Below, piece by piece: positions 14,796 through 62,755 of a stretch of DNA of 64,000 nucleotides; position 1 is the stretch's first letter, and the number at the start of each line of letters is the position of its first letter. The translations under genes were made by a program, and so were the position numbers. Below the pieces are notes generated by a model that saw only the letters and a program-made list of their open reading frames with translations, did no database searches and was not told the origin of the DNA. Origin of the DNA: Candidatus Nealsonbacteria bacterium (GTDB taxonomy: Bacteria > Patescibacteriota > Minisyncoccia > Minisyncoccales > JANBVM01); contig CP179887.1 of NCBI GenBank assembly GCA_047456295.1, forward strand, positions 239,159-303,158, in the 5' to 3' direction.

Positions 14796-14810
14796 GTTTT
14801 AATAACCCTG

Positions 14811-14882: not shown

Positions 14883-15445
14883 TGTTTTTCCAACACAAAC
14901 AACTTCTTTGTTATTGGATTGAAGGTTGAAGAAACCTTTTTTTGAAAAACCAACCTCAGCCCCAGCTCTTTAAAAAGATCCTGCCATGCTTTATCTGATT
15001 TAAAACAGGTTTTGTTTCTGTTGCCAAAAATCTTATTAAAAGAAATGCCGTGGAGCTTACAAAATAATCCTGAAAAAAAACCTTCGGCCAGATCTTCGTA
15101 AATTAAAATCTTATCTCTGGTAACCCTTCTGGCTTCTTTTAATAAAGACAAGGGATCCTGGCTGTGGTGCAGCACATAAGTTATTAAAACAGCATCAAAA
15201 TTATTTTCTGGAAAAGGAAGTGATCTGCCGTCAATCTTTTTAAATGGTATGGGAAATATCCTCCTGTCTGTCACATCCACTCCTATTAATTCAGCCTGGA
15301 AAAAATCCTGAAAGGTCTTGGCCACTATTGATACACCGCAACCCACATCAAGAATCCTGGATTTCTTTTCAATAAAACCCTGACAGTCCTGACACATCTT
15401 TTTTGCTGCCCTCTGGTAGATTTTTAAAAAGGCCTGGTAATACAT
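14873..15445 (-). CDS. class I SAM-dependent methyltransferase
   Basis: 190-aa ORF with SAM motif I (ILDVGCGVS). Its stop overlaps the 5' end of tRNA-Ile. Confidence 0.8.
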   Translation of the reverse strand: MYYQAFLKIYQRAAKKMCQDCQGFIEKKSRILDVGCGVSIVAKTFQDFFQAELIGVDVTDRRIFPIPFKKIDGRSLPFPENNFDAVLITYVLHHSQDPLSLLKEARRVTRDKILIYEDLAEGFFSGLFCKLHGISFNKIFGNRNKTCFKSDKAWQDLFKELGLRLVFQKKVSSTFNPITKKLFVLEKQGT

Positions 15446-15972
15446 TACTTTCTTGGTTTTACAAAACTTCCGGTTATAATCTCGGGTATTAATCTTTTAA
15501 GAAAAGCTCCCTTGATTTTAATTGACCTGGCATAATCACCTGAATTAATAATGATGTTTGGTTGATTTAACAGGGATTTATTAACAAAGCTGGGAAAACC
15601 AAACAAATTACCAAATGGAGGGACAGCTCCAATCTTTACCCCTTTAAATCTATTCTTCATTAACCTTTCTGTAACAAATCCAATGCTCTTTACTGAATTC
15701 TGGCCATTTTTCCTGAGCCAGTTATTGATTGTTTTTTTAAATTTATTCTTGTCCAGGTTTTTATTTGCCGGAACCAGCACCACTGCTAAATCACTGTCGG
15801 TCTTTAAAACCAGGGTTTTTCCAATCATGCCTGGTTTCATTTTTAAGGTCTGGGCTTTATCAAAAGCAGTATACACTGTTTTATGTCCTATTATTTCGTA
15901 TTCAACCCTGTTTTTCTCTAAAAGATTAATTATCTTTTTAGAAATTGGCATAATAAAATAATTGTAGGCCAT
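15445..15972 (-). CDS. YbaK/EbsC-type aminoacyl-tRNA deacylase domain protein
   Basis: 175-aa ORF with a pattern typical of the YbaK/ProRS-associated editing domain (IGKTLVLK..., AVPPFGNLFG). Confidence 0.75.
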   Translation of the reverse strand: MAYNYFIMPISKKIINLLEKNRVEYEIIGHKTVYTAFDKAQTLKMKPGMIGKTLVLKTDSDLAVVLVPANKNLDKNKFKKTINNWLRKNGQNSVKSIGFVTERLMKNRFKGVKIGAVPPFGNLFGFPSFVNKSLLNQPNIIINSGDYARSIKIKGAFLKRLIPEIITGSFVKPRK

Positions 15973-15998
15973 ATTGTTGAATTTGACAAGCCAACATC

Positions 15999-16022
15999 AA
16001 AAAACCTGTAAAAAACTACAGG
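15999..16022 (-). terminator. intrinsic terminator directly downstream of the 16S rRNA
   Basis: The minus strand reads CCTGTA-gttttt-TACAGG followed by TTTTTTG. Confidence 0.6.
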
Positions 16023-16151
16023 CTGCTTGATTGAACATTATGTTTCGGTTTCTCAGAGTTGTCCTGGATCAAGATTTTAGGCTCCTTGATCAACACCTTT
16101 AGAGTTAAAACCCAAATTTACGATTTCAACCCTAGTCGACAACTCAAAATA

Positions 16152-17657
<1,506 letters not shown>

Positions 17658-30072: not shown

Positions 30073-31095
30073 TTAAAGCTTCCTGGCAACAAATTCCACA
30101 AAATCAGCTAATCTGCAGGCATAACCATATTCATTATCATACCAGGCTATAATCTTCACCAGATTGTTCATCACTTTTGTCGAAAGGGCATCAACAATAG
30201 CTGAAAAGGGATTTTTAATATAGTCTGAAGAAACCAAGGGAGCATCTTCCACCCCTAAAATTCCCTTTAATCTTTTTGTTTGAGAAGCTTTTTTAAAAAC
30301 ATAATTCACTTCCTGGGTAGTTGTTTCTTTCTCCACCCTGCATACCAAATCCACAATAGAAACAATGGGGGTGGGCACCCTTAAGGCTATGCCGTCTAGT
30401 TTTCCCTCTAGCTCAGGTATTACCTTGCCGATTGCCTTAGCCGCCCCAGTAGTGGTGGGAATGATATTTAAGGCAGCAGCCCTTCCCCGTCTTAGGTCGC
30501 TATGGGACATATCCAGAAGTCTCTGGTCATTGGTATAAGAATGAACCGTGGTCATAAAGCCCTTGATAATCTTGAAATTTTCATTCAATACCTTAACTAT
30601 GGGAGCCAAACAGTTTGTGGTACAAGAAGCCATATCAAAAATATCATACTCCTTGCAATCTAATTTATCTTCGTTAACCCCTAAAATAAAAGATGGAATC
30701 TTGTCAGGGGTCTTTGAGGGAGCAGAAATTACTACTTTTGCTGCACCAGCTGTTAAATGTTTTTTGGCATTATCATAATCTCTGAAACGACCCGTGCACT
30801 CCAAAACTATGTCAATTCCCAGATCCTTCCAGGGTAGTTTTTCAGGATCCTTCTCAGCAAAGACTCTGATCTTGGCTCCTTTATGATTGCCATCAATTAA
30901 GAGCTCTTTCCCGCTAAATTTAACAGGTTTTTTATAAAGCCCGTAAATAGAATCATATCTCAAAAGATGGCTCAGGGTTTTAGGATCAGTCAAATCATTA
31001 ATGGCCACCACTTCTAAATCAGGGCGCTTTTCTAAAAGCTTACGAAAAGTAGCTCTTCCGATTCGACCAAAACCATTTATGGCAACCTTAATCAT
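30073..31095 (-). CDS. gap: glyceraldehyde-3-phosphate dehydrogenase, type I
   Basis: Contains INGFGRIGR, the catalytic SCTTNCLAP, and WYDNEYGY. Confidence 0.95.
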   Translation of the reverse strand: MIKVAINGFGRIGRATFRKLLEKRPDLEVVAINDLTDPKTLSHLLRYDSIYGLYKKPVKFSGKELLIDGNHKGAKIRVFAEKDPEKLPWKDLGIDIVLECTGRFRDYDNAKKHLTAGAAKVVISAPSKTPDKIPSFILGVNEDKLDCKEYDIFDMASCTTNCLAPIVKVLNENFKIIKGFMTTVHSYTNDQRLLDMSHSDLRRGRAAALNIIPTTTGAAKAIGKVIPELEGKLDGIALRVPTPIVSIVDLVCRVEKETTTQEVNYVFKKASQTKRLKGILGVEDAPLVSSDYIKNPFSAIVDALSTKVMNNLVKIIAWYDNEYGYACRLADFVEFVARKL

Positions 31096-31171: not shown

Positions 31172-31417
31172 TTATTCCTTGATGTTTAACAGCTGGGAAA
31201 TTTTTTCCTTGTCAAACCCTATTACAATTTGTCCCTCTACTTCTATTACCGGCACTCCCATCTGTCCTGATTTTTCAATCATCTCTTTTCTTCCCTTCTC
31301 GTCTTCTGCCACATTGATTTCCTCAAAATCAATGTTGTGTTCCTTTAAAAAATCCTTTAAGGAAGTGCAGTAAGGACAAACTGGGGTACTAAAGACTTTA
31401 ACCATATTTTTGTTCAT
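31172..31417 (-). CDS. glutaredoxin-like protein (NrdH/YruB type)
   Basis: 81-aa ORF with a CPYC active site and GVPVIEVEG. Confidence 0.8.
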   Translation of the reverse strand: MNKNMVKVFSTPVCPYCTSLKDFLKEHNIDFEEINVAEDEKGRKEMIEKSGQMGVPVIEVEGQIVIGFDKEKISQLLNIKE

Positions 31418-32475
31418 TTACACTCTCCTCCACTCGAGGTTCCCTCTTCTAAACCAAATCCCGAGGAAAAAGCAGTATCAGAAAGGGTCTGGGAACATTC
31501 CTCAGGTGAAGAATTAAAGGCTTGACAAATAATCTCTTTAAATTTCTCTGGAGAACGGGGGTTTACCTGTACTATTTCATCGTTAATTACAACAGTTGGA
31601 GAACCTCTCACCCCATATTTCTGATTGAGGTCACTATGGACATCAAATTTAGGAAAGTTTCCATTCAGCCACGTATTTTTGTCTTCGTACTGACTGTAAA
31701 TATTATACTCTTTGTCTGTAGCTGTCATACAGTCGCTAATATTTGACTTATTTATACCTGATTTTTGAAGGCATTCGTCAATGTGTGACTGAACACAATT
31801 AGCCATTTTTACCCTATCTCCTTGAAATTCTTGATAAAATTTTGAGCTACAACTCTCCATCCCCGGACTAGCAATAAAACAGCTTAGATAATTACTGTAT
31901 TTCTCCTTCTCTTTTTCCTGTATGCAATACTGTCTTAAGTTTTCATCAATTTCGTGCTTTTCATGCATTATGTAATTTACAAAATAAATACCCATCTGGG
32001 CTTTTTCTTTCAGTAAATCGTAAACCGGTAAAAACATCTTTTGAGCCTGGAGACCGGAGGGACAATAAGACATTATAAAGAGTTTTGCATCAGGTATTTC
32101 CCTTTTGGAAATCTCTTTTTCATCACCAGTTTCATTTTGGATATTGGTTTCAAGGGTTAAATCATAACCTTCGGGAAACAAATATTTCCCATCTTTACTA
32201 ACGTAAGAGTCGTATTCAATCTCCCCTATCTTAAGACGGATTTTATAAATTTCACCTTCATCAACAATATTCACCAAAGAAGCTGTAATGCCTTGCTGTA
32301 AAACATTATCCAATTTATTAATAAAATCAATGGAAATCTGACCAACTTCCTGGGCTGACAATAAATTCCCCTGAGAAGTATTGTTCTTGGTCTTAATTAA
32401 GTAAGCAGAAACACCTGCTACAATTACAATAATAACAATCCCTGTAATTATTAATTGTTTTGAGTCTTTAATCAT
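31414..32475 (-). CDS. membrane-anchored thioredoxin-fold (DsbA-like) protein
   Basis: 353-aa ORF with an N-terminal TM helix. The thioredoxin-like region has CPSG in place of CxxC and a cis-Pro loop, GVRGSPTVVIND. Confidence 0.5.
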   Translation of the reverse strand: MIKDSKQLIITGIVIIVIVAGVSAYLIKTKNNTSQGNLLSAQEVGQISIDFINKLDNVLQQGITASLVNIVDEGEIYKIRLKIGEIEYDSYVSKDGKYLFPEGYDLTLETNIQNETGDEKEISKREIPDAKLFIMSYCPSGLQAQKMFLPVYDLLKEKAQMGIYFVNYIMHEKHEIDENLRQYCIQEKEKEKYSNYLSCFIASPGMESCSSKFYQEFQGDRVKMANCVQSHIDECLQKSGINKSNISDCMTATDKEYNIYSQYEDKNTWLNGNFPKFDVHSDLNQKYGVRGSPTVVINDEIVQVNPRSPEKFKEIICQAFNSSPEECSQTLSDTAFSSGFGLEEGTSSGGECK

Positions 32476-38248: not shown

Positions 38249-38431
38249 CTATTTTTCTTTCTCAATTGCTCCGTAAGGACACAGGGTTTCACCACCGCAT
38301 TCCTCTACCTTGTCTGAATTAATAATCTTTGATTTGCCATCATCATTCCAATCAGCCCCCTCAGGACAGGTAGTAATACAAACCCCGCAACTGATACATT
38401 TTTCTTTGATGACTTTGAATTTTACAGCCAT
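38249..38431 (-). CDS. small 4Fe-4S ferredoxin
   Basis: 60-aa ORF with CISCGVCITTCP plus a C-terminal Cys. Confidence 0.75.
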   Translation of the reverse strand: MAVKFKVIKEKCISCGVCITTCPEGADWNDDGKSKIINSDKVEECGGETLCPYGAIEKEK

Positions 38432-38536
38432 ATTTTTGACATTGTTATTTATTTTATCAAACCTTTATTAATGTATTATCTATTGGTTCCCCCAACCATT
38501 AACAATGATTATATCAAAACTAAACCTAAATACAAA

Positions 38537-39751
38537 TTAACATCTTCGTTTATGTTTCTTTATAAGCCTTAAAATCTTTGACATTAAATCCACTTGTTTT
38601 ATCTTGCCCAGTTTCCCTTTTTTACAAGCTCTCTCTGAAAACCTTTCCACAGAATCTGGTCCTGTTCCATAAATTAAAAGAGGGATGGGGTTCTTACAGT
38701 GTCTTTTTAATAAAGAACAGGTGGAGTGATCAGCTGTTACAACAATTAAGATATGTTTGAGACCCAATAAAGGCTTCATGTTTTTATCAATCTTTTCAAT
38801 AAAATCTCTCTTTCCTGAAAAGTTGCCGTCTTCAGCCAAACTATCTGTAGCTTTAATATGTAAGAACACAAAACCATAATTTTTCAAAGCCTTTTTTGCA
38901 GTCTGAATCTTTCCCTTAAGGTTGGTGGATACAAGGCCGTTGGCTCCTTTCACCTTGATTAATTTCATTCCCAGGGCTTTGGCAATCTGTTGGTAAAGAA
39001 TCTTTCCTGCAATACAACAAGCCTTAAAACCGTATCTTTTCTTAAAAGAAACAAGTTTTTGAGGAGAACTGGCACCCCTGACTAAAATATAGTTAGCTAC
39101 AGGAAGACCTAATTTTTTTCTTTTTTTATTTAAAGGATGATTTTTTAAAATCTGATGACTCCTCTTTAAAAACTCATTTAAAATACCAGCAGTAAAAGCA
39201 GATTTTGAGCTCTTGTCCAAAGGAATAATTTTTTTAACCCTTTTGCCCAGTGTTGAATAAAAAGGGTCGCCATCTGAAATCCTGCAACTTAAATTCTTTC
39301 CCCGCAAGATTATACCCAGTCTGTGTTGCCCGGCTGGCTTTATCAAAACCTTTACATTGTTTATTTTAATTCCATTTAAAGATTTTATCAAAGACTTGGT
39401 GTTTTGAATCCTGCCTGCCCGTCGGTCAATAATATTGAAATTCTTATCTACAGTACTAAAGTTGCCCCGCAAAGCAACATCCCCAGACCTTACTTTCATT
39501 CCAGCTCCTCTGACTGTAAATATTCCCCGTTTAATTGTTAAGGCCTTGGGATGGTAGCCGAACAAGGAAAAATGACCTTCTTCTGAAGTAGGAATGGCTG
39601 CGGTATAACAAGGTTCCATTAAACCTGTTATTCCCTTTTTGGCCAAATAATCCAGATGAGGAGTTCTGGCTTTTTCCAGAGGGCTTTTATTGCCAAACTG
39701 CTTTATTCTTTCGTCTCCCAGACCATCAAGAACAATAAAGAGTATGTTCAT
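38537..39751 (-). CDS. apgM: cofactor-independent phosphoglycerate mutase, archaeal type
   Basis: Contains MNILFIVLDGLGD, a metalloenzyme-superfamily pattern, and VTADHST. It overlaps eno by 4 nt. Confidence 0.85.
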   Translation of the reverse strand: MNILFIVLDGLGDERIKQFGNKSPLEKARTPHLDYLAKKGITGLMEPCYTAAIPTSEEGHFSLFGYHPKALTIKRGIFTVRGAGMKVRSGDVALRGNFSTVDKNFNIIDRRAGRIQNTKSLIKSLNGIKINNVKVLIKPAGQHRLGIILRGKNLSCRISDGDPFYSTLGKRVKKIIPLDKSSKSAFTAGILNEFLKRSHQILKNHPLNKKRKKLGLPVANYILVRGASSPQKLVSFKKRYGFKACCIAGKILYQQIAKALGMKLIKVKGANGLVSTNLKGKIQTAKKALKNYGFVFLHIKATDSLAEDGNFSGKRDFIEKIDKNMKPLLGLKHILIVVTADHSTCSLLKRHCKNPIPLLIYGTGPDSVERFSERACKKGKLGKIKQVDLMSKILRLIKKHKRRC

Positions 39752-41031
39752 AAGCCCAATTCTTGTTCAATCTTTAACAATCTGTTATACTTTGCCACCC
39801 TTTCTCCCCTGGCTAAAGCTCCTGTCTTGATAAAATCAGCCCCAAGACCCACTGACAGATCAGCAATAAAATCATCATTTGTTTCCCCTGACCTGTGGGA
39901 AACAATTATTTTCCAACCAAAATCTTTTGCCAACCCTGCAGATTCAAGAGCTTCTGAGACTGTTCCTACCTGATTTATCTTCAAAATCATGCTATTTACA
40001 GCCTTTTTTTCTTTTGCTTCTTTTATCCTGTCTGGATTGGTAACCAGAAGGTCATCCCCTATCACCAAAATCTTTTCACCCAATTCCTTTGTAATCTGTT
40101 CAAACCCTTCCCAGTCATCTTCTGAAAATGGATCTTCCAACCCTGCAACAGGATATCTTGAAATTAAATTTAAATAATATCTTATTAAACCTTGTTTTGT
40201 AAAAATACCAAACTGCATTTTATACTTCCCGTCTTTAAAGAATTGGGAAGCAGCTACATCTAGAATAATTTTGATTTTGTTTTCATATCCTATTTTTCTG
40301 GCAGCTCCTAAAATCAATTCAATAGCTTGTTCAGGAACTATAAGGGGCGGGGCAAATCCTCCTTCATCCCCTAAATTTGTGGCTTGCTTTCCATATTTCT
40401 CCAATAAGAGATCTCTTAACTGATGATAAATTTCTGCACCTATCTGGAGATTCTTTGAAAAAGATTCTTCCTCAGGTGCTATCATGAATTCCTGAATGTC
40501 CAACCTGTTTCCTGCGTGCAACCCTCCATTAATGACATTGAACAAAGGAAAGGGTATTTTATAATCCCTGTCTGGTATGTTATGTCTGCTTTTAAAAATA
40601 TCCCTTATATACTCAAAGAGTTTTAATTTTCTGGCTCCAGCTCCGGCCCGACAAACAGCCAAAGAAACAGCGCAAATAGCATTTGCTCCCAAACAAGACT
40701 TATCCTTTGTACCATCTAATTCAATCATTAAATCATCAATCTCTTTTTGCAGGGTCACATCCCTTCCTTTAATCTTTGGACCAATAACTTCATTTATATT
40801 CTTTACTGCTTTTAAGACCCCTTTTCCAAAATATCTCTTTTCTCCATCCCTTAACTCTACTGCTTCATATTTTCCCCTGGAAGCTCCAGAGGGTACAGAA
40901 GAATGAAACACTCCTGCGTCTGTCTTTAAATCAACCCCAATGGTGGGATTACCCCTTGAGTCTAAAATCTCTCTTGCTTTTATTTCTTTAAGCCTGAAAG
41001 ATTTCCTTATTTTTTTTGATTTTAAAACCAT
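39748..41031 (-). CDS. eno: enolase
   Basis: Contains ILDSRGNPT, SGASRG and SHRSGETND. Confidence 0.95.
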   Translation of the reverse strand: MVLKSKKIRKSFRLKEIKAREILDSRGNPTIGVDLKTDAGVFHSSVPSGASRGKYEAVELRDGEKRYFGKGVLKAVKNINEVIGPKIKGRDVTLQKEIDDLMIELDGTKDKSCLGANAICAVSLAVCRAGAGARKLKLFEYIRDIFKSRHNIPDRDYKIPFPLFNVINGGLHAGNRLDIQEFMIAPEEESFSKNLQIGAEIYHQLRDLLLEKYGKQATNLGDEGGFAPPLIVPEQAIELILGAARKIGYENKIKIILDVAASQFFKDGKYKMQFGIFTKQGLIRYYLNLISRYPVAGLEDPFSEDDWEGFEQITKELGEKILVIGDDLLVTNPDRIKEAKEKKAVNSMILKINQVGTVSEALESAGLAKDFGWKIIVSHRSGETNDDFIADLSVGLGADFIKTGALARGERVAKYNRLLKIEQELGL

Positions 41032-41960
41032 TATTTTGTATTTTTTAAATAATCAAAAACAGACAAAGCTGCTTTTGATCCCTGGCCGGCAGCAATTACA
41101 ATCTGTTTGAATCTTCCTGCAGTTACGTCACCTGCTGCAAAAAGACCTGGAGTCTTTGTCTGACAGGTCTCAGGGTCAATCTTTATCTCATCTTTTTCAT
41201 TAAAATCCACCAAATCCTTAATAAATGAGGTGGCGGGTTGTGACCCTATTTCCACAAAAATACCTTCCACAGACAGGGTTTTATCTTCCTTGGTTTTTCT
41301 GTCTTGATAAACTATTGAATTAACAAATGTATCTCCTTTAATTTCTTTTAAAAGGACATTTGTTATTATTTCAGTCTTTCCTCCTTTTTTAACTATTTCC
41401 TGATTCTTGGAATCAGCTTTAACTTCTGAACCGTATTCCAAGATATATATTTTTTTAGCTATACTATTTAAAAACTGGGCTGTTTCAAAACCAGAATTTC
41501 CTCCTCCAATCACAGCTACCTCTTTACCAGAAAACAAAGGACCATCACATACTGCACAATAACTTACGCCCTTTCCTATGAATTCTTTTTCTCCAGGAAC
41601 CTCCAGGGGCCTAGGATCAGACCCTGAAGCAATGATAACTGTCTTACTTTCAAACTTGTTTTTATTACTGGTCCAAATAAAAAAAGAGTTATCAATCTTT
41701 TTCATCTTAGCTACCTCATCTCGCTCTATATCAATGGTTTGTTTCCTTAAGTGTTTTTCAAATCTTTTGATTAAATCCAGTCCTGAAATTTCCTCAAAAC
41801 CAGGATAATTTTCAATAGCTACTGCTTTCTTTGCCATCTGTCCTCCAAAGTCTTTACTGATTAATAAGGTCTTTAATCTCTGCCTGGCAGCATAAATACC
41901 GGCTGTCATTCCAGCCGGTCCCCCGCCAATAATGATTAAATCGTAAACCATATCTTTCAC
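41031..41960 (-). CDS. trxB: thioredoxin-disulfide reductase
   Basis: Contains GGGPAG, the redox centre CAVCDG, and GGGNSG. Confidence 0.9.
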   Translation of the reverse strand: MKDMVYDLIIIGGGPAGMTAGIYAARQRLKTLLISKDFGGQMAKKAVAIENYPGFEEISGLDLIKRFEKHLRKQTIDIERDEVAKMKKIDNSFFIWTSNKNKFESKTVIIASGSDPRPLEVPGEKEFIGKGVSYCAVCDGPLFSGKEVAVIGGGNSGFETAQFLNSIAKKIYILEYGSEVKADSKNQEIVKKGGKTEIITNVLLKEIKGDTFVNSIVYQDRKTKEDKTLSVEGIFVEIGSQPATSFIKDLVDFNEKDEIKIDPETCQTKTPGLFAAGDVTAGRFKQIVIAAGQGSKAALSVFDYLKNTK

Positions 41961-41989
41961 GTTTTCTTTAAGCTTCCTATTAAAAAGAT

Positions 41990-42859
41990 TTAGTGTAAGA
42001 CCTCGGGAATGGCTTTTATTACTTCTGTAGCCAATAATCCCTCTTTCATTTTTTGAGCTGCCATTTCCCCTGCCTTGCCATTAATAAAGGCAGCAGCCTG
42101 GGCAGCAACAAAAGAATCAATACCCCTGGCAAGCAAGGCACCGCAGATTCCAGCCAATGTATCACCTGTTCCTCCCACCGACATATAGGGGCTTCCGCTC
42201 TTATTTAAGGCTACTTCCTTGCCGTTAGAAATAATGTCTGGTTTTTCTTTGAGCAAGATTGTTGTCTGAAGACGTTCAGCTTCCTGTTTTACTGCTTTTA
42301 TCTTTTCTTCATAAGGAAGCTTATAAATTTCTCTTTTTGTCAAAACAAAGAATTCGTAGCTATGGGGGGTGATTAGAAAATTCCTTCCTGAAACAATCTC
42401 AGGTTTTTTTCCTAGAGCATGGATGGCGTCAGCATCAATAACAGCTGGTATTGAAATTCTTTTAAGATATTCCAGGATTACTTCCTGGGTTTCTTTGCTT
42501 CTGCCTGTTCCGCCGCCAATAACCACAGCTGTATTTCCCCTGGATACGGTCTTTGCTGATTCTGTCATTGAAATTAAGGTAGCTAAATGTTTCTTTTCCA
42601 ACCATTTACCTTCCAGGGGATAGGCTGCCATATCAGGGGAAAAAGAAGCAATGATGTCAGCTGCTCTTTTTGGGGCAATAATGTTTACCATATCCACCCC
42701 TGAGTTAAAGGCTGCCATAGCAGAAAGGGCTGGTGACCCTGAATAAAATTCAGATCCCCCAATCACCAACAACAGTCCAAAGTCATATTTTCGGCGATAA
42801 ACGCCTTTTTTCCTTTCCTCAAAAATATCTTTTAAGATTTTTTTGTCTACTTGAATCAT
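41990..42859 (-). CDS. nnrD: ADP/ATP-dependent NAD(P)H-hydrate dehydratase (YjeF C-terminal family)
   Basis: Contains GGSEFYSGSPALSAMAA and GGTGDTLAG. The start is trimmed to Met25 to remove the overlap with ftsZ. Confidence 0.8.
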   Translation of the reverse strand: MIQVDKKILKDIFEERKKGVYRRKYDFGLLLVIGGSEFYSGSPALSAMAAFNSGVDMVNIIAPKRAADIIASFSPDMAAYPLEGKWLEKKHLATLISMTESAKTVSRGNTAVVIGGGTGRSKETQEVILEYLKRISIPAVIDADAIHALGKKPEIVSGRNFLITPHSYEFFVLTKREIYKLPYEEKIKAVKQEAERLQTTILLKEKPDIISNGKEVALNKSGSPYMSVGGTGDTLAGICGALLARGIDSFVAAQAAAFINGKAGEMAAQKMKEGLLATEVIKAIPEVLH

Positions 42860-42885
42860 AAAATTATCTTTGTTAAATTTATTTA

Positions 42886-44187
42886 TTAACCTTGATTCAT
42901 TTTCTTCTTTAAGAAGCTTGGGGTTTCCCAAAATTTCTCCTTGGATATTATTTCAGCCTCTTCTCTCTCTTTGTCTTTTTTAACCTCCAGAGCATTCTTT
43001 CTAACCCTTATTCTTTCCTTTTCTTTTTTTTGTATTGGCACAACCTTTTTTAAAGAAACAGGGGGATTGGATTGAGAAACCTTAACCTTTATCTTTTTTT
43101 GCTTTACTTTTTTTCTTTTTATTTTACTCACCTTTTTTGGTTTCTTTTTAGGTTTTTTAAAAGTTTTCTTTTGACTGCATCCTGTAGCCAATAAGGTCAC
43201 CTTTATTTTTGAATTTTTTTTAACACCGGAAATCCCGAAGATAATCTTTGCCTCTTTGTGAACCCGACCGGAAATAACCCTGGAAACCTGATCAACCTGG
43301 GTCAAAGAAAGGTTTTTCTGACCTGAAATGTTAAGCATGACTCCCTTGGCCCCATCAATGCCATAAAGGTACAAAGGGGAATTTATCACCTTTTCGATGG
43401 CTTCCTTATCTTCTTTTCCTATCTCAATGGAATTTAAATAAGTCAACCTTCCCCTCCCCTCAAATATGGTCTTTAAATCAGCAAAATCAATATTTATTAA
43501 CCCCGGGGCATAGATTATATCAATCAAACTCCGAATGGAATCTGCCAGCTTCTTATTAATTGCAGAAAGGGCTTTTTTAAGAGGAGCTGTCCTTTCTATG
43601 ATTTGAAAAACTCTTTCATTGGGAATAATGGAAAAGGCATTCAATTTTGTCTTTACCTTTTCCAGAGATTTTCTGGCAATATCCATTTTCTTTTCGCCCT
43701 CAAACTTAAAAGGAAGGGTGAAGATACCATATGTTAAATTTCCTAAATCTTTTGATATCTTGGCAAAAATAGGGACAGCTCCAGATCCCAATCCTCCTCC
43801 CAAACAAACAATTAAAATAACAAAGTCCTGCTCTTGTAATATCTTTTTTATCCTTTGTTTTTCTCTTCTGGCAGCTTCCTCACCTAACTCAGGATTCATG
43901 CCTGTTCCCAGTCCATGGGTTAAATCCTGACCAAAATGAAATCTTGTGACTTTTGCTGAAATCCTTCTCAAGGCCTTGGAATCAGTATTGGCAGCAAAAA
44001 AAGAAGCCCTTTTCACCCTCTGGGCTATCTCAGAAACTATTGAACCTCCTCCACCTCCAATTCCAACCAATAGAACCTTTATCTGTTTAATTTTTTTAGG
44101 TTCTTTTTTATCAACCTCCTTTTTCTTTCTGGCAATGCGTCTACGAAATACTCTTTTTCTTGCTGATTTTTTCTTCTTTTTCCTCAT
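42886..44187 (-). CDS. ftsZ: cell division protein FtsZ with Lys/Arg-rich N- and C-terminal extensions
   Basis: Contains VGIGGGGGSIV, GLGTGMNPELG, and GGGLGSGA (the tubulin signature). Confidence 0.9.
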   Translation of the reverse strand: MRKKKKKSARKRVFRRRIARKKKEVDKKEPKKIKQIKVLLVGIGGGGGSIVSEIAQRVKRASFFAANTDSKALRRISAKVTRFHFGQDLTHGLGTGMNPELGEEAARREKQRIKKILQEQDFVILIVCLGGGLGSGAVPIFAKISKDLGNLTYGIFTLPFKFEGEKKMDIARKSLEKVKTKLNAFSIIPNERVFQIIERTAPLKKALSAINKKLADSIRSLIDIIYAPGLINIDFADLKTIFEGRGRLTYLNSIEIGKEDKEAIEKVINSPLYLYGIDGAKGVMLNISGQKNLSLTQVDQVSRVISGRVHKEAKIIFGISGVKKNSKIKVTLLATGCSQKKTFKKPKKKPKKVSKIKRKKVKQKKIKVKVSQSNPPVSLKKVVPIQKKEKERIRVRKNALEVKKDKEREEAEIISKEKFWETPSFLKKKMNQG

Positions 44188-44265
44188 TATTTAAGTATAA
44201 GACTTTAAATAAAAGAGGTCAATTAAAACACAACTGGGTTATTGGACAATGTTAAAACCTGTTTG

Positions 44266-44820
44266 TTAAGCAAGATATACACTTAACAACTTTCTCCAGG
44301 CCTCATAAAGAGGGGTAATTTCTTTTTGTAGTTCTGGAAATAAACCAACATCACGATAGTCTCTTTCAAGTTTGGCAATAATAGAATCTTTTGGCATAAA
44401 CGAAAACATAACTATATAGGCAATATCAGTCATGTGGCTTGTTGAATCAGCGGCTGCCAAAATCTTAGCTTCTAAGGTTTCTGGTTGAACATCCCTACAC
44501 CTATGAGCTCTTATACAATGGGCAACTTTTTCAATCTTCTCAGGCGCTACTTTTATTTGAGAGAGAAAACGCCTGGCTTCAACTTCAGATTTAACAGCGT
44601 GGTCAACATTCTCTTCTCCAATTGCCCTACCTATATCATGAAGCCAAACAGACAATAAAACTATTTCTTTATCTGCTTCAGGATAGTTTTCTAAAATTCT
44701 TTCAGCCCACTTTTTAGCTTCACTAACATGTCTTGGAAGGTAAGGGTATACAGAACAGCTTCTGTTTTCAAAAGTTTTCAAAAAATGAGATTTTGCTTTG
44801 TTTATAATTCCATTTAACAT
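44266..44820 (-). CDS. HD-domain phosphohydrolase
   Basis: 184-aa ORF containing WLHDIGR and other His/Asp residues. Confidence 0.75.
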   Translation of the reverse strand: MLNGIINKAKSHFLKTFENRSCSVYPYLPRHVSEAKKWAERILENYPEADKEIVLLSVWLHDIGRAIGEENVDHAVKSEVEARRFLSQIKVAPEKIEKVAHCIRAHRCRDVQPETLEAKILAAADSTSHMTDIAYIVMFSFMPKDSIIAKLERDYRDVGLFPELQKEITPLYEAWRKLLSVYLA

Positions 44821-44827
44821 GCTTCAA

Positions 44828-44911
44828 TTCTACCAAAAAATCGTCCCAGGCAACAGACATGGGGACGATTTTCACCGTCTGGGGATCTTGGACGATGTTA
44901 GAATCTGTTTG
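44828..44911 (+). repeat. intergenic inverted-repeat element, copy A (84 nt)
   Basis: The sequence is ttctaccaaaaaatcgtcccaggcaacagacatggggacgattttcaccgtctggggatcttggacgatgttagaatctgtttg. The termini TTCTACC and GTTAGAA are inverted repeats. The inner arms are ATCGTCCC, GGGACGAT and GGACGAT. Confidence 0.85.
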
Positions 44912-45087
44912 CTACTTCAAAATAACTAATCCTCCAATTATACGTTTATCTTCAAATCCTTTCCCTTTTATATCCACATCTTCTACCTTTGGATCTACTT
45001 TTACCAGCCATTTAAATTCAACCGGTTGTATCTCTAAAAAAATCTATACCAGTTTCTTGAGCTCTTCAAGAAGAACTAAAGATTCAT

Positions 45088-45375
45088 TTAGAGAGACACA
45101 CACTCGCTTCCATTAAAGCATTTATCAGGTCCGCAGTCGCAAATGTTCACCTGATGACTATTTTCTGGTGAACAACCGCAGGGGCCAACAAGACATAGAT
45201 TAGGAAAATCACCAGTTGCTTTACAACATAATGATGTGGAGACTTGTCCTCCAGAGTCTATACAAGCTTTTTCTATTTCAGTTAACTCTTCGGGTGTTAT
45301 CGCTGACTGATAAATCCAGTAACCTACTCCCACAACAACAATTATAATAATGAGAGCAATTATTGTTTTAGACAT
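45088..45375 (-). CDS. small membrane-anchored Cys-rich protein
   Basis: 95-aa ORF with an N-terminal TM helix and 10 Cys in the ~60-aa C-terminal part. Confidence 0.5.
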   Translation of the reverse strand: MSKTIIALIIIIVVVGVGYWIYQSAITPEELTEIEKACIDSGGQVSTSLCCKATGDFPNLCLVGPCGCSPENSHQVNICDCGPDKCFNGSECVSL

Positions 45376-45459
45376 ATTATTTTTAAAAATTTATATTACG
45401 ACCTTTTTATTTTAACAACAATTTTATGAAGAATCGATGAACTTATTAAATCATTATCA

Positions 45460-45543
45460 TTCTACCAAAAAATCGTCCTAGGCAACAGACATGGGGACGA
45501 TTTTCACCATCTGGGGATATTGGACGATGTTATAACCTGCTTG
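45460..45543 (+). repeat. intergenic inverted-repeat element, copy B (84 nt)
   Basis: By my hand alignment it has 6 mismatches to copy A over 84 nt. Confidence 0.85.
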
Positions 45544-45565
45544 ATAGAGATAATTGGTGTTTAAA

Positions 45566-46165
45566 TTACCACTTCAATAAAAATTCGTGATATTCGTCAC
45601 CTCTATAAACACATTTTGTTTCTTCAGAAGTTACCTTACTTCCAACTATCATTTGGATTATAGTAGGAATAGAACCCCTGAGAATTTGACAGTGAAGTGG
45701 ATGAAACTGGAAATTTCTCACCCTAAAAATTATATGTCTTTTTTCCTCGTCAATTTCCACTACTTCAATATCTCCAAGTGTAAAATATCTTCTCCACATC
45801 TCTGGACCTTCTTTCGACACCCTTTCAAGTGAAACGAAATACTTCATAAAAAGTCTAATAATTAAAGAAAGTTTGGCGTGAAACCTTCCCATTTCCTGAA
45901 ACTTTTTGTCATCGTAATTAAAAAGTCTCTTAATAGCTAACAAGATAACAGCTTCTACTCCAAAAGGATAAAGAGTCGTTGCTTTTACTTCTCTGAATTT
46001 TATTGGGTAGCCAAGTCCTGTCATTGTATCTTCCAATTTCTTCAATCCCTCCTCGCCTTCTTCTTTAAGAATAAACTTTCCGTGGGTCTTTATTCCTGTT
46101 CCTTTTACTTCCCCTTTAAGTTTCATTAATTCATCAAATTCCTGTTTTGAAATTATTTGTTCCAT
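45566..46165 (-). CDS. hypothetical protein
   Basis: 199-aa ORF with no motif recognised with confidence. Confidence 0.5.
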   Translation of the reverse strand: MEQIISKQEFDELMKLKGEVKGTGIKTHGKFILKEEGEEGLKKLEDTMTGLGYPIKFREVKATTLYPFGVEAVILLAIKRLFNYDDKKFQEMGRFHAKLSLIIRLFMKYFVSLERVSKEGPEMWRRYFTLGDIEVVEIDEEKRHIIFRVRNFQFHPLHCQILRGSIPTIIQMIVGSKVTSEETKCVYRGDEYHEFLLKW

Positions 46166-46215
46166 ATTATTTCATAATACTATAAAACCTGGCAAGAGCA
46201 AAGCTCTCGGGCAGC

Positions 46216-46249
46216 ATCTGGGCTGGTTAGACACAGTTAGAATCTGGTT
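46216..46249 (+). repeat. intergenic element, copy C (right-hand core only)
   Basis: atctgggctggttagacacagttagaatctggtt shares the CTGGG..(T)TAGAC/GGAC..GTTAGAATCTG core with copies A and B. Confidence 0.6.
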
Positions 46250-46313
46250 CTGGAGGGGGTTTTTTGCTTTTGAGACATTATACTTATTAACCCAAAAGGG
46301 TGAATTAAAAAAG

Positions 46314-47054
46314 TTATTTTTTCGCCTTAATCAAAAATCTTGTTGTTTTAAAAACGAGTTTACTTCCTTTATTAAGTTTATTCTGCAAACCCTCTAAAAC
46401 AGGTAAGTATTTATCAACATTAAAACCTTTTACAATCCAAGGTATAACCTTTAAAGAATATACAATAGCGCCAACATCCTTAAACTTTGTTTTACCTGAC
46501 CATTCTTTTGCTTGTTCTATTTTAAACCCAACTCTCTCTAAATTATTTCTAGCTATTTTAGGAGTCCACCCTTTAGTTTGTGGTTCAATATTAAACTCCT
46601 GAACTAAATCTTTTAAATTATCTCCGCCAACTTGTTGAGTTAAAAAAATCCCACCCCCTTGAAGTACTCTGAATACCTCTTTCTCATTATAAAAGCTGTG
46701 CCGACTTAATACTAAATCAAACTCTTTATCAGCAAATGGTAACTTCCCTGATTTATTTGTTTTGACAACTTCAATGCCTAATGGGGTTAATTTTTTTCTC
46801 GCTATTGGTACATTAAGTGAATAACTCTCTGTAGCAAATGTGTGTTTAGAAAAAGGCCCAAATGATGAAAAAGCTTCTCCTCCGCCAGTTCCTATATCCA
46901 ATACTGCTGTTGCTTTTTTAATCAAGTTTTTCGCTTCCTTTTCGTAATTCCAGGGAGGTTTTTCAACTTTTAATCTGTCTTTAATATACGAAAAATCCCA
47001 GCCGCTGAATGGTGTCTGTTCGTCTTTTTTCCATTGAGAATATAAATTATTCAT
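46314..47054 (-). CDS. class I SAM-dependent methyltransferase
   Basis: 246-aa ORF with motif I, VLDIGTGGGE. Confidence 0.8.
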   Translation of the reverse strand: MNNLYSQWKKDEQTPFSGWDFSYIKDRLKVEKPPWNYEKEAKNLIKKATAVLDIGTGGGEAFSSFGPFSKHTFATESYSLNVPIARKKLTPLGIEVVKTNKSGKLPFADKEFDLVLSRHSFYNEKEVFRVLQGGGIFLTQQVGGDNLKDLVQEFNIEPQTKGWTPKIARNNLERVGFKIEQAKEWSGKTKFKDVGAIVYSLKVIPWIVKGFNVDKYLPVLEGLQNKLNKGSKLVFKTTRFLIKAKK

Positions 47055-47061
47055 AAATCAA

Positions 47062-47144
47062 TTTTACCAAAAATCGCCCTTTTAGGCGATTCTCGAACCG
47101 AGCTCAAGATGGCTGCGAACCGTGGACAGAGTTTGAATCTTTTG
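47062..47144 (+). repeat. intergenic inverted-repeat element, copy D (83 nt, diverged)
   Basis: The sequence is ttttaccaaaaatcgcccttttaggcgatt...cgtggacagagtttgaatcttttg. It has the same length and the same terminal and inner-arm layout as copies A and B. Confidence 0.65.
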
Positions 47145-47301
47145 ATTAGGTGCAAAACAGCTTATTCCTGTTCCTGTTTATTTCTCATTAAATATACCCA
47201 GGCCTTTTTCTAGCACTTATTATGGAGGTAGCGCCTTCAAGGTGCAAATAGCTAAAGCACTTTCACAGACTTCAACCTGCCTGATATAATGAAGAAAACC
47301 T

Positions 47302-48264
47302 ATGTTAATTACAGAAATAAATATTAAGTTGAAGGCTGGGAATGGCGGGAATGGAAAAGTTTCTTTTTATAAAAGAAGAAGAGGCCCAGATGGAGGTAAT
47401 GGAGGAAAAGGCGGCAGTATTTTTATTACCTCTACTTCAGATATTTACGCTCTTTCTAATCTTTCAAAAAGCACCAAAATCAAAGCAGAAAACGGTCAGC
47501 ATGGAATGTCAAATAAAAAAGCTGGTAAGTTTGCTGAGGATTTAGAAGTTAAAGTTCCTATTGGGACTATTATTACTGATAAGAATTCTAAAGAAGTTTT
47601 TGAAGTGGCTGACAAAGACTATCGTTTTCTCTTGTGTCAGGGAGGACGGGGCGGTAAAGGCAACTGGGAATATCGTTCTTCTAGAAATACTACGCCGATG
47701 TATGCCCAAAAGGGTTTTGAAGGCCAGGAAAGAGATTTATATATTAATCTTAAGCTTATTGCTGACTATGGGTTTATCGGCTTCCCTAACGCTGGTAAAA
47801 GCAGCTTGCTTAAAGAGATAACAAACGCTAATCCAAAAATCGGCGATTACCCTTTTACTACCCTTGAGCCTAACTTAGGAGAATTAGAGGGTAAAATTAT
47901 TGCTGATATTCCAGGACTTATAGAAGGGGCTTCTAAAGGAAAAGGTTTAGGGGTCAAATTTTTAAAACATATTGAAAAAGTTTCACTCTTATTTCATTGT
48001 CTTTCTTGTGAACTTAAAGAGCCTGAAAAAAGCTATCAACAAATCAGGAACGAGCTAAAGAGTTATGATCCAAAATTATTAAAGATACCGGAAATTATTC
48101 TTCTTACCAAAACAGATTTAAAATCAGAGAAAGAAGTTAAGTTAAGTCTTAAGGTTTTGAAAAAACTGAAAAAACAAATATTGCCCGTTTCTATTCATGA
48201 TTGGGATAGTTTGGAAAAACTAAGAACCTTTATTTTAAAATCTTTTACCTCGGTGAAGCGATGA
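47302..48264 (+). CDS. obg: GTPase Obg
   Basis: Glycine-rich Obg fold (GGNGG..GGKGG), G1 GFPNAGKSS, G3 DIPGLIEGA, G4 TKTD. Confidence 0.9.
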   Translation: MLITEINIKLKAGNGGNGKVSFYKRRRGPDGGNGGKGGSIFITSTSDIYALSNLSKSTKIKAENGQHGMSNKKAGKFAEDLEVKVPIGTIITDKNSKEVFEVADKDYRFLLCQGGRGGKGNWEYRSSRNTTPMYAQKGFEGQERDLYINLKLIADYGFIGFPNAGKSSLLKEITNANPKIGDYPFTTLEPNLGELEGKIIADIPGLIEGASKGKGLGVKFLKHIEKVSLLFHCLSCELKEPEKSYQQIRNELKSYDPKLLKIPEIILLTKTDLKSEKEVKLSLKVLKKLKKQILPVSIHDWDSLEKLRTFILKSFTSVKR

Positions 48265-48300
48265 GCCCGAACGATAGCGAGTGGTTCGTTGTTGGGAATC

Positions 48301-48324
48301 GTGGACGACATTAGAACCTATTTT
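48301..48324 (+). repeat. intergenic element, copy E1 (right-hand core; a full-length copy might start at TTTTACC, 48244-48250, inside the obg 3' end)
   Basis: The core reads gtggacgacattagaacctatttt. Confidence 0.5.
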
Positions 48325-48361
48325 ATAACTAAAAAAGAAGGTTTTGAGATACCGATTTTGG

Positions 48362-48386
48362 CTGGACGAGGTTAGAGTCTGTTTAG
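48362..48386 (+). repeat. intergenic element, copy E2 (right-hand core)
   Basis: The core reads ctggacgaggttagagtctgtttag. Confidence 0.55.
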
Positions 48387-48457
48387 TAGAGGTTTTGGAA
48401 TAAAAAAAGTTCACCTTTATTCAAGATGAACACATTATTATTTATAAAATCTAAAAT

Positions 48458-48889
48458 TTACACTATAAAAGTAGGGTGATTCTTACCAATAGCTTCTAAC
48501 AATTCTTCTGTTTGTTTTTTCCATCTTGAATCAAATTCCTCTAACGACTCTGACTCAAGACAATTCAGCGCCTCCTTTTTATCAAGAAATAAAGCAGCTA
48601 TAGGAGATGTTTTTCCTCCCCAAGAAGAAATATTTACTTGCATAGCTCTTTGAGTCCGCTCCGGAGCCCCTGTCCAAGGAGAATAATCCTCAGAATATAG
48701 TATTATTCCCATTTCTGTAATGCCAACTAAATGACCTCCAAGAAGTCTACTTCCAATAGGAATACCGCTTTCACCTTTAAGTGCAATCTTCTCAATAATG
48801 GGGATGCCATCTTCATCCTTTCTATCTGTTACGTGGTAAACAGACTTCATAGTAACTGCAAAAAACTCACTAATAACCTTTTCTTTCAT
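48458..48889 (-). CDS. hypothetical protein
   Basis: 143-aa ORF with no recognised motif. A candidate TTGACT-N16-TAATAG promoter lies upstream at about 48930-48957. Confidence 0.5.
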   Translation of the reverse strand: MKEKVISEFFAVTMKSVYHVTDRKDEDGIPIIEKIALKGESGIPIGSRLLGGHLVGITEMGIILYSEDYSPWTGAPERTQRAMQVNISSWGGKTSPIAALFLDKKEALNCLESESLEEFDSRWKKQTEELLEAIGKNHPTFIV

Positions 48890-48988
48890 AATTTTCCCTC
48901 AGTCCTTTATTTATTAAAAGACCTATATTTCTATTAGCACAACTAAATGAAAAGTCAAGACCCGAGCTCTTGGCTCGGGCTTCAATAA

Positions 48989-49059
48989 CTGCGGGGCTAG
49001 GACTCGAACCTAGATTACGAGTGCCAGAAACTCGAGTGCTACCATTACACCACCCCGCA
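48989..49059 (-). tRNA. tRNA-Gln (anticodon CUG)
   Basis: The reverse complement is TGCGGGGTGGTGTAATGGTAGCACTCGAGTTTCTGGCACTCGTAATCTAGGTTCGAGTCCTAGCCCCGCAG. It has the U1:A72 pair and G73 typical of tRNA-Gln. A hairpin terminator follows at 48961-48979. Confidence 0.8.
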
Positions 49060-49062
49060 AAA

Positions 49063-49971
49063 TTAAATCTCCAAATATTTTCTAATAGCTACGCTGCTTG
49101 AAATTATTCCCAGTCCAATTCCAGTAGCAAACTGAATTAAAAGTAAACTCTGGAAATTCTCAACAAATAATTCAAATAAATTAAGACTGAAAAAGAAACT
49201 TGAAATCCTGGGGCTCAAAAACAGACAGACTGCACTGAAAACCAAAAGAGAAATGAAGCCTGCCAGAACTCCGCAGATTGCCCCCTGGACCAAAAACGGT
49301 CCCTGGATAAACCAGTTTGAAGCGCCAACAAGCCTTTGAACCTTAATCTCTTTCCTTGAATTATAAATTGAAAGCCTGATGGTATTGAAGGTAACAGCAA
49401 TTGCCATGATTATCAAGACTACGGAAAGGAAAATAAATATATTAATGATAACAGAGCTTAAAGAAGAAATTCTTTCAATCACTGATTTTCTTTGATAATA
49501 ATCAATCTTTTCAATAAAACTCTCAAACTCAGGGTTTTCCAAAAAACCAAAAACCTTTCCGTATTGACTGGGTTCCCAGGCCTCGATATTCAAGGAAGCT
49601 AAAAAAGGATTCCTTCCCAACTCTTCAATCGACTCTATTAAAACAGGTTCCTGTTCGTGTCTTATAATAAAGTCTTGCAAAGCCTGTTCAGGGGAAACAT
49701 ACTCTATATCTTTTACCTCAGTAAACTGAGAAATTTCTTCTTTTATACTTAAAATATCTTTTTCTGTCACCTGTTCTTTGAAATAAACCGATATGTCAAT
49801 CTTTTCCTGAATGGCTGAAACCACAAACTGACTTATGTCCTTGAAAAGAAAGAGTGAGCTAACCAGCATAACAGCTAAAAACAAAACAAAGATGGTAGCT
49901 ACCACCGTCTCTCTATCACGGAAAAAACTCTTCCAGCCTGAATAAAATATTCTTTTAATTAAGGTAAACAT
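49063..49971 (-). CDS. ftsX: cell division permease-like protein FtsX
   Basis: 302-aa ORF with four TM segments and a large first periplasmic loop. It is directly downstream of ftsE. Confidence 0.85.
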   Translation of the reverse strand: MFTLIKRIFYSGWKSFFRDRETVVATIFVLFLAVMLVSSLFLFKDISQFVVSAIQEKIDISVYFKEQVTEKDILSIKEEISQFTEVKDIEYVSPEQALQDFIIRHEQEPVLIESIEELGRNPFLASLNIEAWEPSQYGKVFGFLENPEFESFIEKIDYYQRKSVIERISSLSSVIINIFIFLSVVLIIMAIAVTFNTIRLSIYNSRKEIKVQRLVGASNWFIQGPFLVQGAICGVLAGFISLLVFSAVCLFLSPRISSFFFSLNLFELFVENFQSLLLIQFATGIGLGIISSSVAIRKYLEI

Positions 49972-62555: not shown

Positions 62556-62567
62556 CAAACTACAAAA

Positions 62568-62622
62568 CCCGGGCCTGTGGCTCGGGCTTCAAAAACTCCG
62601 GCGGTAGGATTCGAACCCCAGG
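62568..62622 (-). pseudogene. tRNA 3'-half-like remnant (Gln-like) with its downstream terminator hairpin
   Basis: ggctcgggcttcaaaaactccggcgg (62579-62604) differs at 3 of 26 positions from the hairpin and tRNA 3' end at tRNA-Gln (48972-48997). The T-arm-like GGTAGGATTCGAACCCC cannot form a proper T stem, and no 5' half is present. Confidence 0.5.

Positions 62623-62683: not shown

Positions 62684-62755
<72 letters not shown>

Follow-up and report, generated by a model that had tools for sequence, protein, structure and literature searches.

What kind of repeat separates the single genes that lie between a tRNA-Gln gene and ftsZ in Candidatus Nealsonbacteria, and how did these genes come to stand there? 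The window, i.e., the whole 64-kb stretch of contig CP179887.1 that was analyzed, is a Patescibacteria-type segment with a GC content of 36% that carries an rRNA operon, ftsZ, ftsE/X and glycolytic genes. A sequence-only reading of this DNA, made without database searches, had drawn attention to copies of an ~84-nt element and had offered two explanations: integron attC sites, or a portable gene-boundary module at which transcription terminates and restarts. Our analysis points to another answer. The copies are likely to be attL/attP-like junction repeats, derived from tandem integration at tRNA-Gln by a large serine recombinase (LSR). The outcome would be integron-like, but the mechanism would not.

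Repeats in the interval between tRNA-Gln and ftsZ

The element is present in seven same-strand copies at 44.2–48.4 kb and in none of the remaining 60 kb of the window. The repeats first noticed are thus real and clustered, but their number had been given as six, copy Z having been missed; this copy is the outermost junction, located between the stop codon of the HD gene and the ftsZ promoter. The core TGGACGANGTTAGAAYCTGTTT has five plus-strand matches at ≤3 mismatches, all within 44243–48384, with 0.00 expected from 100 shuffles, and the cores of copies C (46228–46249) and D (47123–47144), although more degenerate, still align with the others. Copies A and B are 92% identical across 88 nt. 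The right-hand core has the form TGGACGA-N-GTTAGAAYCTGTTT, plus a short left box; its spacer is a single base, and the two-base spacer originally proposed (TGGACGA-NN-GTTAGAA) gave 0 matches. The copies and their surroundings are listed below, with protein-coding genes between the repeats taken from the open reading frame (ORF) list and Pfam.

42886–44222, minus strand: ftsZ and its promoter (TTGACC-17-TATACT, 6 nt ahead of the ATG), the conserved far boundary of the variable interval
44227–44264, plus strand: copy Z, core 44243–44264, newly found, beginning one base past the HD stop codon
44266–44820, minus strand: HD hydrolase
44827–44914, plus strand: copy A, full element, core 44889–44910, acceptor-like box 44879–44888
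44827–44835, minus strand: −10 box for the HD gene, in the left half of copy A, which also contains the terminator hairpin at ~44836–44873
45088–45375, minus strand: Cys-rich protein, 95 aa
45459–45546, plus strand: copy B, full ~88-nt element, core 45521–45542
45566–46165, minus strand: 199-aa gene
46212–46249, plus strand: copy C, core 46228–46249, degenerate
46314–47054, minus strand: S-adenosylmethionine (SAM) methyltransferase
47062–47144, plus strand: copy D, degenerate, with a decayed core (47123–47144), a terminator hairpin and a tRNA-Gln-type acceptor box GCTGCGAACCG
47302–48264, plus strand: Obg
48286–48323, plus strand: copy E1, core 48302–48323
48350–48386, plus strand: copy E2, core 48363–48384, a tandem doublet with E1, 61 nt apart
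48458–48889, minus strand: 143-aa gene
48960–48980, minus strand: intrinsic terminator of tRNA-Gln (terminator scan), prototype of the hairpins within the elements
48988–49060, minus strand: tRNA-Gln(CTG) (ARAGORN and Rfam), with the array directly downstream in the same direction; proposed integration target
49063–49971, minus strand: ftsX, the conserved gene on the near side of tRNA-Gln

The order FtsE, FtsX, tRNA-Gln(CTG), variable interval, FtsZ, carbohydrate kinase is conserved in 80 related ftsZ loci, and the array of the window fills exactly the interval between tRNA-Gln and ftsZ, downstream of the tRNA. In 11 of the 14 related loci that were checked, tRNA-Gln precedes the variable interval. 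Among the relatives this interval ranges from ~0.4 kb to ~6 kb and contains unrelated genes. The shortest one (L183) has the same ftsZ promoter architecture as the window and is without the motif, which argues that the motif arrives with the inserted DNA. The inserted modules would be the genes spanning 44266–48889. Genes for the HD, Cys-rich, methyltransferase, Obg and 143-aa proteins are absent within ±10 kb of ftsZ in the 80 relatives, and a single homologue of the 199-aa gene was found among these loci, in a different context. The initial idea that the copies are site-specific recombination sites between small and unrelated genes open to exchange is supported by this wholly different content of the interval in relatives and by the link of the motif to a recombinase family (below).

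Furthermore, strains that are 96–99% identical on the ftsZ side diverge completely just past the motif and terminator (L165 versus L170; L124 versus L122/L121). The 199-aa gene is 88% identical at the nucleotide level to a gene of a complete Nealsonbacteria genome, where it stands beside rarA and is flanked by motifs; a presumably core 90-aa protein of the same two genomes is only 70% identical. A 75%-identical homologue (L134, 4426–5220) belongs to an apparent operon without a motif, with the next ATG a few bases past its stop codon; this operon may be where the cassette gene was native before its capture.

tRNA genes, recombinase genes and proposed att-site geometry

An exact-pattern scan of GTDB, with one genome per species, revealed at least 118 motif loci, mostly from Patescibacteria (Saccharibacteria, Nealsonbacteria, Levybacteria, Colwellbacteria and others), with a few from other phyla; viral contigs gave only one exact match. 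The consensus of the scanned loci, including flanks, is GCTCCG-N5-TGGACGA-N-GTTAGAACCTGTTT-N-AT. Within it a 22-mer is near-invariant across phyla, and more than 100 copies share the same sharp left edge of conservation. The conserved block measures ~36–38 bp, with one half-site clear and the other arm conserved only up to the tRNA end; neither dyad symmetry nor a central dinucleotide was identified in it. A profile search revealed same-strand arrays of 10 copies in L049 (up to 10 per 8 kb), 8 in L081, 8 in L088 and 6 in L118, with a spacing of 0.4–2 kb. Same-strand arrays are thus present in many Patescibacteria contigs, which is far more than chance would produce. Some loci contain tandem doublets similar to E1/E2; those with a 57–61-nt period were found in L049 (3.7–7.3 kb), L083 (0.4–0.7 kb) and L025, share a recurring ~33-nt linker, and may be 'empty' sites or bare attP-length units. 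One singlet in L049 resembles a doublet collapsed through recombination between its two cores. In L105 (1357–6364), a 2.5-kb segment with four ORFs and one motif is tandemly duplicated at 98.7% identity; it was rejected as an informative event, as its boundaries are not at the motif.

The loci follow an orientation rule. The gene on the CTGTTT side of the motif is convergent, i.e., on the opposite strand, in 107 of 128 cases, with its stop codon at a median distance of 28 nt, and the other side is usually the start of a co-oriented gene, at a median of 101 nt. Genes adjacent to the motif encode NUDIX (six cases), HD and HAD proteins, deaminases, Ham1, methyltransferases and a restriction enzyme, and no recombinase. 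Read in gene sense, the order is a gene with its stop codon, AAACAGGTTCTAAC.TCGTCCA-N5-CGGAGC, a hairpin with a T-run, TGnTAnnAT, 6–8 nt and the next ATG. The junction is accordingly composed of four parts: a constant half-site of ~22 nt (AAACAGGTTCTAAC.TCGTCCA); a copy, ~12–15 nt long, of acceptor end, discriminator and trailer of the upstream tRNA gene; an intrinsic terminator of the tRNA-trailer type; and an extended −10 promoter, 6–8 nt ahead of the ATG of the next, leaderless gene.

The tRNA origin of the second part is seen in several ways. The motif-bearing loci contain 43 tRNA genes, of which 32 have the predicted side and strand; almost none is within 400 nt of a motif, the relevant tRNA heading the array at a distance of 0.6–4 kb. 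From locus to locus, the acceptor-like box changes along with the local tRNA (Gln, Asn, Ser-GGA or Tyr), against an unchanging 22-mer. The arm matches tRNA-Asn in L118, L069, L038 and the LSR junction of L109, tRNA-Ser(GGA) in L108 and L098, and tRNA-Tyr in L073. For tRNA-Gln, the compared ends are:

L159/L175: tRNA-Gln 3′ end ...GGTTCGAGTCCAGGCCCCGCAGCA; motif ...GGTTCTAACGTCGTCCACGACCCGCAGCA
L194: tRNA-Gln 3′ end ...CCCCGGAAC; motif ...CCCCCGGAAC
Window, copy Z: tRNA-Gln end and trailer CCCGCAGTTATTG; acceptor and trailer part of the motif CCCAGTTGTG, which resembles it

Elsewhere in the window, 48956–49010, which covers the 3′ end of tRNA-Gln and its terminator, is 82% identical to 62563–62617; ARAGORN called no tRNA at the latter position, which is ~65 nt from tRNA-Thr(CGT) at 62684–62755.

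Recurrent neighboring proteins in the motif loci comprise housekeeping genes and a cluster of LSRs, with Resolvase, Recombinase and Zn_ribbon_recom domains, and the LSR is the only recombinase that recurs. Its ORF ends within the motif in L066 and L039, and in L109 the ORF of an LSR homologue runs out in the 3′ end of a tRNA, on the strand opposite to the tRNA. The family is common in Patescibacteria and contains 2697 homologues at E ≤ 1e-30, many of them named Parcubacteria, Minisyncoccia or Paceibacterota, and C-terminal tails were read in the best 120 of the 2697. Most of these either stop at ...NPxLLRG or continue as ...LLRDLDSNQDTxLQRxxSYH. The LDSNQD... tail is the translated reverse complement of a tRNA (GGATTCGAACC = DSN), and the tail ...LLRxLDDVRT..., present in ~18 of the best 120, is the translated motif. 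At the DNA junctions, the LSR of L203 is followed by tRNA-Trp; the LSR genes of L216 and L215 have the motif as the end of their coding sequence, and L209 and L211 carry variants of it. The tRNA after the LSR of a viral contig (L204, 5639–5880) carries a group I intron (Rfam RF00028, 92 bits), for which reason ARAGORN missed it. In two LSR loci from outside Patescibacteria, one of them on a 4.2-Mb contig, the LDDVRT tail is kept in the protein and the DNA has diverged from the motif; conservation at the protein level makes the recombinase gene the likely source of the DNA motif. The LSR genes are surrounded by genes known from mobile elements (TrwB/VirD4-like, Replic_Relax, primase and toxin-antitoxin genes). 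On the 4.2-Mb contig (L213, 16.5–21.6 kb) the LSR lies within a defense and mobile-element island with a CBASS-like cluster (SMODS, SAVED, bacHORMA_2, Cap8), RelB/ParE and a tyrosine integrase.

Motif and tRNA also share an offset block. The reverse complement of the tRNA reads acceptor-TGGA-TTCGAACC, and the motif reads acceptor-TGGA-cgatg-TTAGAACC (..TGGAcgatgTTAGAACC), so that the distance between the common TGGA and the common block TT(A/C)GAACC is 5 nt greater in the motif than in the tRNA, where the block belongs to the T-loop. In serine integrases, the distal block bound by the zinc-ribbon domain is 5 bp closer to the center in attB than in attP (PMC3783163). The 5-nt shift of TT(A/C)GAACC matches this geometry (PMC3783163), and on these grounds we assigned the sites as follows:

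attB: tRNA 3′ end; in the upstream tRNA gene
attP: LSR-gene 3′ end with the motif (tail LDDVRT); in ~18 of the best 120 homologues
attR: LSR end joined to the tRNA body (tail LDSNQ...); in the majority of the best 120 homologues, the integrated state
attL: host tRNA arm joined to the element P′ arm; in the motif copies of the arrays

With these assignments, the first two parts of a junction would be of attL type, consisting of the host tRNA arm and the P′ arm of the element, and nearly equal to attP. The attP site would overlap the 3′ end of the recombinase gene itself (...LLRxLDDVRT), and attB would be the 3′ end of the tRNA gene. Because the P arm of the element mimics the tRNA end, integration would restore the tRNA and probably leave it targetable again; if so, successive insertions would stack downstream of the tRNA, each leaving one junction in the same orientation. 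The single-gene modules, which contain no recombinase, would have been integrated by such an LSR, either moved in trans as non-autonomous cassettes or entering as larger elements that later decayed.

Several observations weigh against this origin of the repeats. No LSR gene was found in the window, where only ~26 ORFs were tested by Pfam, and the modules between the repeats carry no recombinase. In L218, a canonical motif 8.1 kb upstream of the LSR and the site at the LSR end are related, but they are not clean hybrids. We found no near-identical strain pair that differs by exactly one module with its junctions in the motif. The obg gene, normally an essential core gene, lies inside the interval in the opposite orientation, and none of the 80 related loci has obg there. 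The DNA left of the acceptor box is not conserved, so that a full second half-site is not evident, and many copies, C and D among them, are degenerate and may be dead. The crossover would lie in or beside the acceptor part. At ~870–960 of L121, an insertion of ~30 nt interrupts a motif copy, exactly between ...GGTTCTAACATC and GCGTCCAGG..., and in L007 a copy is truncated directly after TTAGAA; both may hint at the crossover or at secondary insertions.

Junction anatomy and rival explanations

The left half of the element is a terminator and a sigma-70 promoter for a leaderless gene. On the minus strand, copies A, B and D fold into stems of 7–11 bp followed by TTTTT(T)GG. A simple terminator scanner had missed these hairpins, the loops of A and B being longer than its 8-nt limit, and copy D, with a loop of ~4 nt, was also unlisted. 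The box written TTCTAYC or TTCTACC is a −10 hexamer with a TG extension, 6–8 nt ahead of ATGs; TGGTAGAAT and TGGTAAAAT are such −10 boxes 6 nt ahead of an ATG, the latter on the minus strand of copy D, ahead of the methyltransferase. The proposal of a −10 exactly 6 nt before the next ATG therefore applies to copies A and D but not to copy B, where the next ATG is 84 nt away. Likewise, the terminate-then-restart module fits the left half, with its hairpins, T-runs and −10 boxes, and fails for the conserved core. The junction terminator corresponds to the trailer terminator of a tRNA, as seen when the tRNA-Asn trailer of L118 is compared with the left flank of the motif in L024, and a homologous tRNA trailer with its hairpin precedes motif copies at other loci.

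The promoter style is common in the window. Many genes have a −10 box 6–8 nt ahead of the ATG (ftsZ, HD, methyltransferase, 31414–32475, 30073–31095, 28056–29978 and others), Shine-Dalgarno-like sequences are scarce across its genes, and the 3′ end of the 16S rRNA (16152–16200, minus strand) is GGAUCACCACAUUUU, without the CCUCC anti-Shine-Dalgarno. Together, these features suggest that leaderless translation is widespread in this genome.

With regard to the core, copies A and B do fold as a long imperfect hairpin with an R″-L″...L′-R′-like layout, and the outer and inner inverted repeats reported for them exist; they are, however, not a property of the family. Across 123 copies no complementary partner was found within 140 nt for any part of the motif, and duplex energies equaled those of shuffles. 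Counts of the best complements of the core and of the left box within 105–140 nt on either side equaled shuffled controls as well; TCGTCC occurs upstream in only 3 of the 123 copies and TTCTAAC in 6. Rfam searches of the copies, with gathering thresholds and with E ≤ 10, detected no family. Mutual information reflected neighbor effects only, with no paired columns, and complementarity to 16S, 23S and 5S rRNA was no better than that of shuffles. Taken together, the missing partner, Rfam family, paired columns and rRNA pairing argue that the core is neither an attC-type hairpin nor a structured RNA. In addition, the window has ~45 other gene boundaries, mostly on the same strand and with the same promoter style, and none of them has the motif, which thus does not mark gene boundaries in general. 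All copies fall within one 4.2-kb stretch, lie on one strand and are non-palindromic, unlike repetitive extragenic palindromic (REP) sequences or miniature inverted-repeat transposable elements.

Other candidates for the motif were also rejected. A plus-strand promoter (TGGACG as −35, NATRRA as −10) fails because the final T of the −10 is not conserved, and a small peptide or the 3′ end of ordinary genes because only LSR genes read into the motif. By-eye comparison gave no fit to dif/Xer, a rolling-circle nick site, boxA or sigma-54. RNase P RNA was considered for viral contig L120, where the DNA left of the motif is G+C-rich; Rfam gave no hit there, and this DNA has no similarity to that of other loci.

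If the repeats were made by an LSR, are they still in use? We consider it possible, with some doubt, that the arrays are a working serine-recombinase platform for gene capture, the functional counterpart of integrons in Patescibacteria. Each cassette of such a platform would consist of a constant P′ half-site, a tRNA 3′-end mimic with a terminator, and its own leaderless promoter. An LSR encoded elsewhere would insert, excise and exchange cassettes at tRNA-Gln, -Asn, -Ser and -Tyr across phylum-level lineages. The alternative is that the LSR-made repeats are pure fossils, the modules being decayed remains of large elements, with nothing mobile now. The degenerate copies C and D, the unconserved left half-site, the lack of a recombinase among the ~26 window ORFs tested and the truncated LSR pseudogene that adjoins a motif in L039 are what decay would leave. 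A sharp left boundary that is identical in more than 100 copies and a 22-mer that is near-invariant across phyla are harder to reconcile with it, as are the 92% identity of copies A and B, modules that are regularly just promoter, gene and site, and the presence of the same gene beside motifs in different genomes and neighborhoods. On balance, we regard pure fossils as unlikely, although still worth serious consideration.

A second alternative keeps the tRNA and changes the enzyme: the copies would be tRNA-3′-end direct repeats left by tyrosine integrases, and the link to LSRs would be secondary, the two merely sharing a target. Tandem islands with direct repeats at tRNA genes are classically products of tyrosine integrases, and small Phage_integrase ORFs occur in two LSR neighborhoods. 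Nevertheless, ~18 of the best 120 homologues have this very 22-mer as the coding 3′ end of the LSR gene (LDDVRT), and the 5-bp offset of TT(A/C)GAACC is a serine-integrase signature (PMC3783163). No tyrosine integrase recurs among 819 motif-locus ORFs, and Pfam detected no Phage_integrase domain among 120 motif-adjacent ORFs, which makes this explanation improbable.

A host element conserved for expression (a portable terminator/promoter, a REP-like repeat or a 3′-untranslated-region RNA signal) and exploited by mobile elements is very improbable. The motif does stand 0–100 nt past stop codons and ahead of terminators, its left half truly is a terminator plus promoter, and the genes that follow the orientation rule are mostly stand-alone enzymes (NUDIX, HD, HAD, deaminases). 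These features are outweighed by the ~45 window boundaries without a motif, the lack of RNA structure, covariation and rRNA complementarity, the variable arm that copies the local tRNA, the 'empty' L183 interval without the motif, and the LDDVRT tail that is kept in the LSR protein outside Patescibacteria despite different DNA.

The integron explanation first entertained, i.e., attC sites folded as single-strand hairpins and recombined by a tyrosine integron integrase in a cassette array, recommended itself by same-orientation repeats between single unrelated genes, a core GTTAGAA close to the R′ consensus GTTRRRY and the hairpins of copies A and B, but it has next to no probability left given 123 copies without a complementary partner, a left TTCTAYC box that is a TG-extended −10 hexamer, a purine at the final Y when GTTAGAAC/T is compared with the core-site pair RYYYAAC/GTTRRRY, a 22-mer conserved in sequence across phyla (unlike attC), a left arm that is a tRNA acceptor end, a motif within the 3′ end of serine recombinase genes, and no Phage_integrase domain or IntI among the 26 window ORFs tested by Pfam.

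Known systems and further observations

The sites inferred here resemble those of large serine integrases of the A118/LI, phiC31 and Bxb1 type, which are asymmetric, ~40 bp long and non-folding, have an 8–9-bp block 5 bp further from the center in the element site (PMC3783163), and adjoin, or lie partly inside, the gene of a recombinase with Resolvase, Recombinase and Zn-ribbon domains. They differ in that the host is targeted at a tRNA gene, the 3′ end of which is mimicked by the element arm, and because of this mimicry attR resembles attB and attL resembles attP. They also differ in forming arrays between single genes that carry no recombinase, and in showing no identified dyad symmetry.

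Like tandem islands linked to tRNA genes, the array lies downstream of a tRNA, has co-directional repeats with acceptor end and trailer, and occupies a hypervariable interval. Such islands are usually kilobases long and encode their own integrase, of the tyrosine type; the modules here are single genes of 0.4–1 kb, and the repeat carries a constant, element-derived 22-mer. The staphylococcal cassette chromosome (SCC) forms composite islands at the 3′ end of rlmH that are moved by Ccr serine recombinases, and sites in one orientation delimit successive cassettes, some of them without a recombinase, stacked at one chromosomal site. Same-orientation serine-recombinase sites that delimit stacked cassettes are thus common to both, but our array differs from SCC in the recombinase subfamily, in a tRNA rather than a protein-coding target and in its much smaller modules, and there is no sequence relationship. 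With integrons it shares small, unrelated single-gene modules between same-orientation recombination sites. It departs from them in having no hairpin, a site conserved in sequence and not in structure, and a serine rather than a tyrosine recombinase; furthermore, each module has its own promoter and terminator in place of a common Pc, and the anchor is a tRNA and not attI. Integration at tRNA genes by a site-specific recombinase is of a known kind, and the LSR junction arrays would be a form of it with an integron-like outcome. A search of the literature returned no description of the motif or of LSR cassette arrays in Patescibacteria.

Patescibacteria have tiny genomes with few recognized mobile-element systems, and much of their content appears to be horizontally acquired. 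The finding provides them with a sequence-defined mechanism and a searchable marker, the 22-mer with its tRNA arm, for integration hotspots that hold small accessory enzymes (NUDIX, HD, HAD, deaminases, methyltransferases) and toxin-antitoxin pairs. Should the modules be mobilized in trans, the arrays would amount to a cassette system of integron-like character that relies on a serine recombinase. The finding also predicts cognate sets of LSR, attP and attB (tRNA end), which are of interest as tools for genome engineering. For annotation, the repeats should not be taken for attC sites, terminator motifs or RNA genes, and they break assemblies: in an independent public assembly, the contig equivalent to window 38258–44876 (L119) terminates within copy A, which indicates that these repeats interrupt short-read assemblies.

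Apart from the array, the rRNA operon of the window is interrupted, at 12140–16152. A peptidase M20 gene (13367–14593) and a gene for a mechanosensitive-channel-like protein (12487–13173) lie between tRNA-Ala/Ile (14721–14882) and the 23S rRNA (9129–12140), and a methyltransferase gene together with a YbaK/tRNA-editing-domain gene lies between the 16S rRNA and tRNA-Ile.

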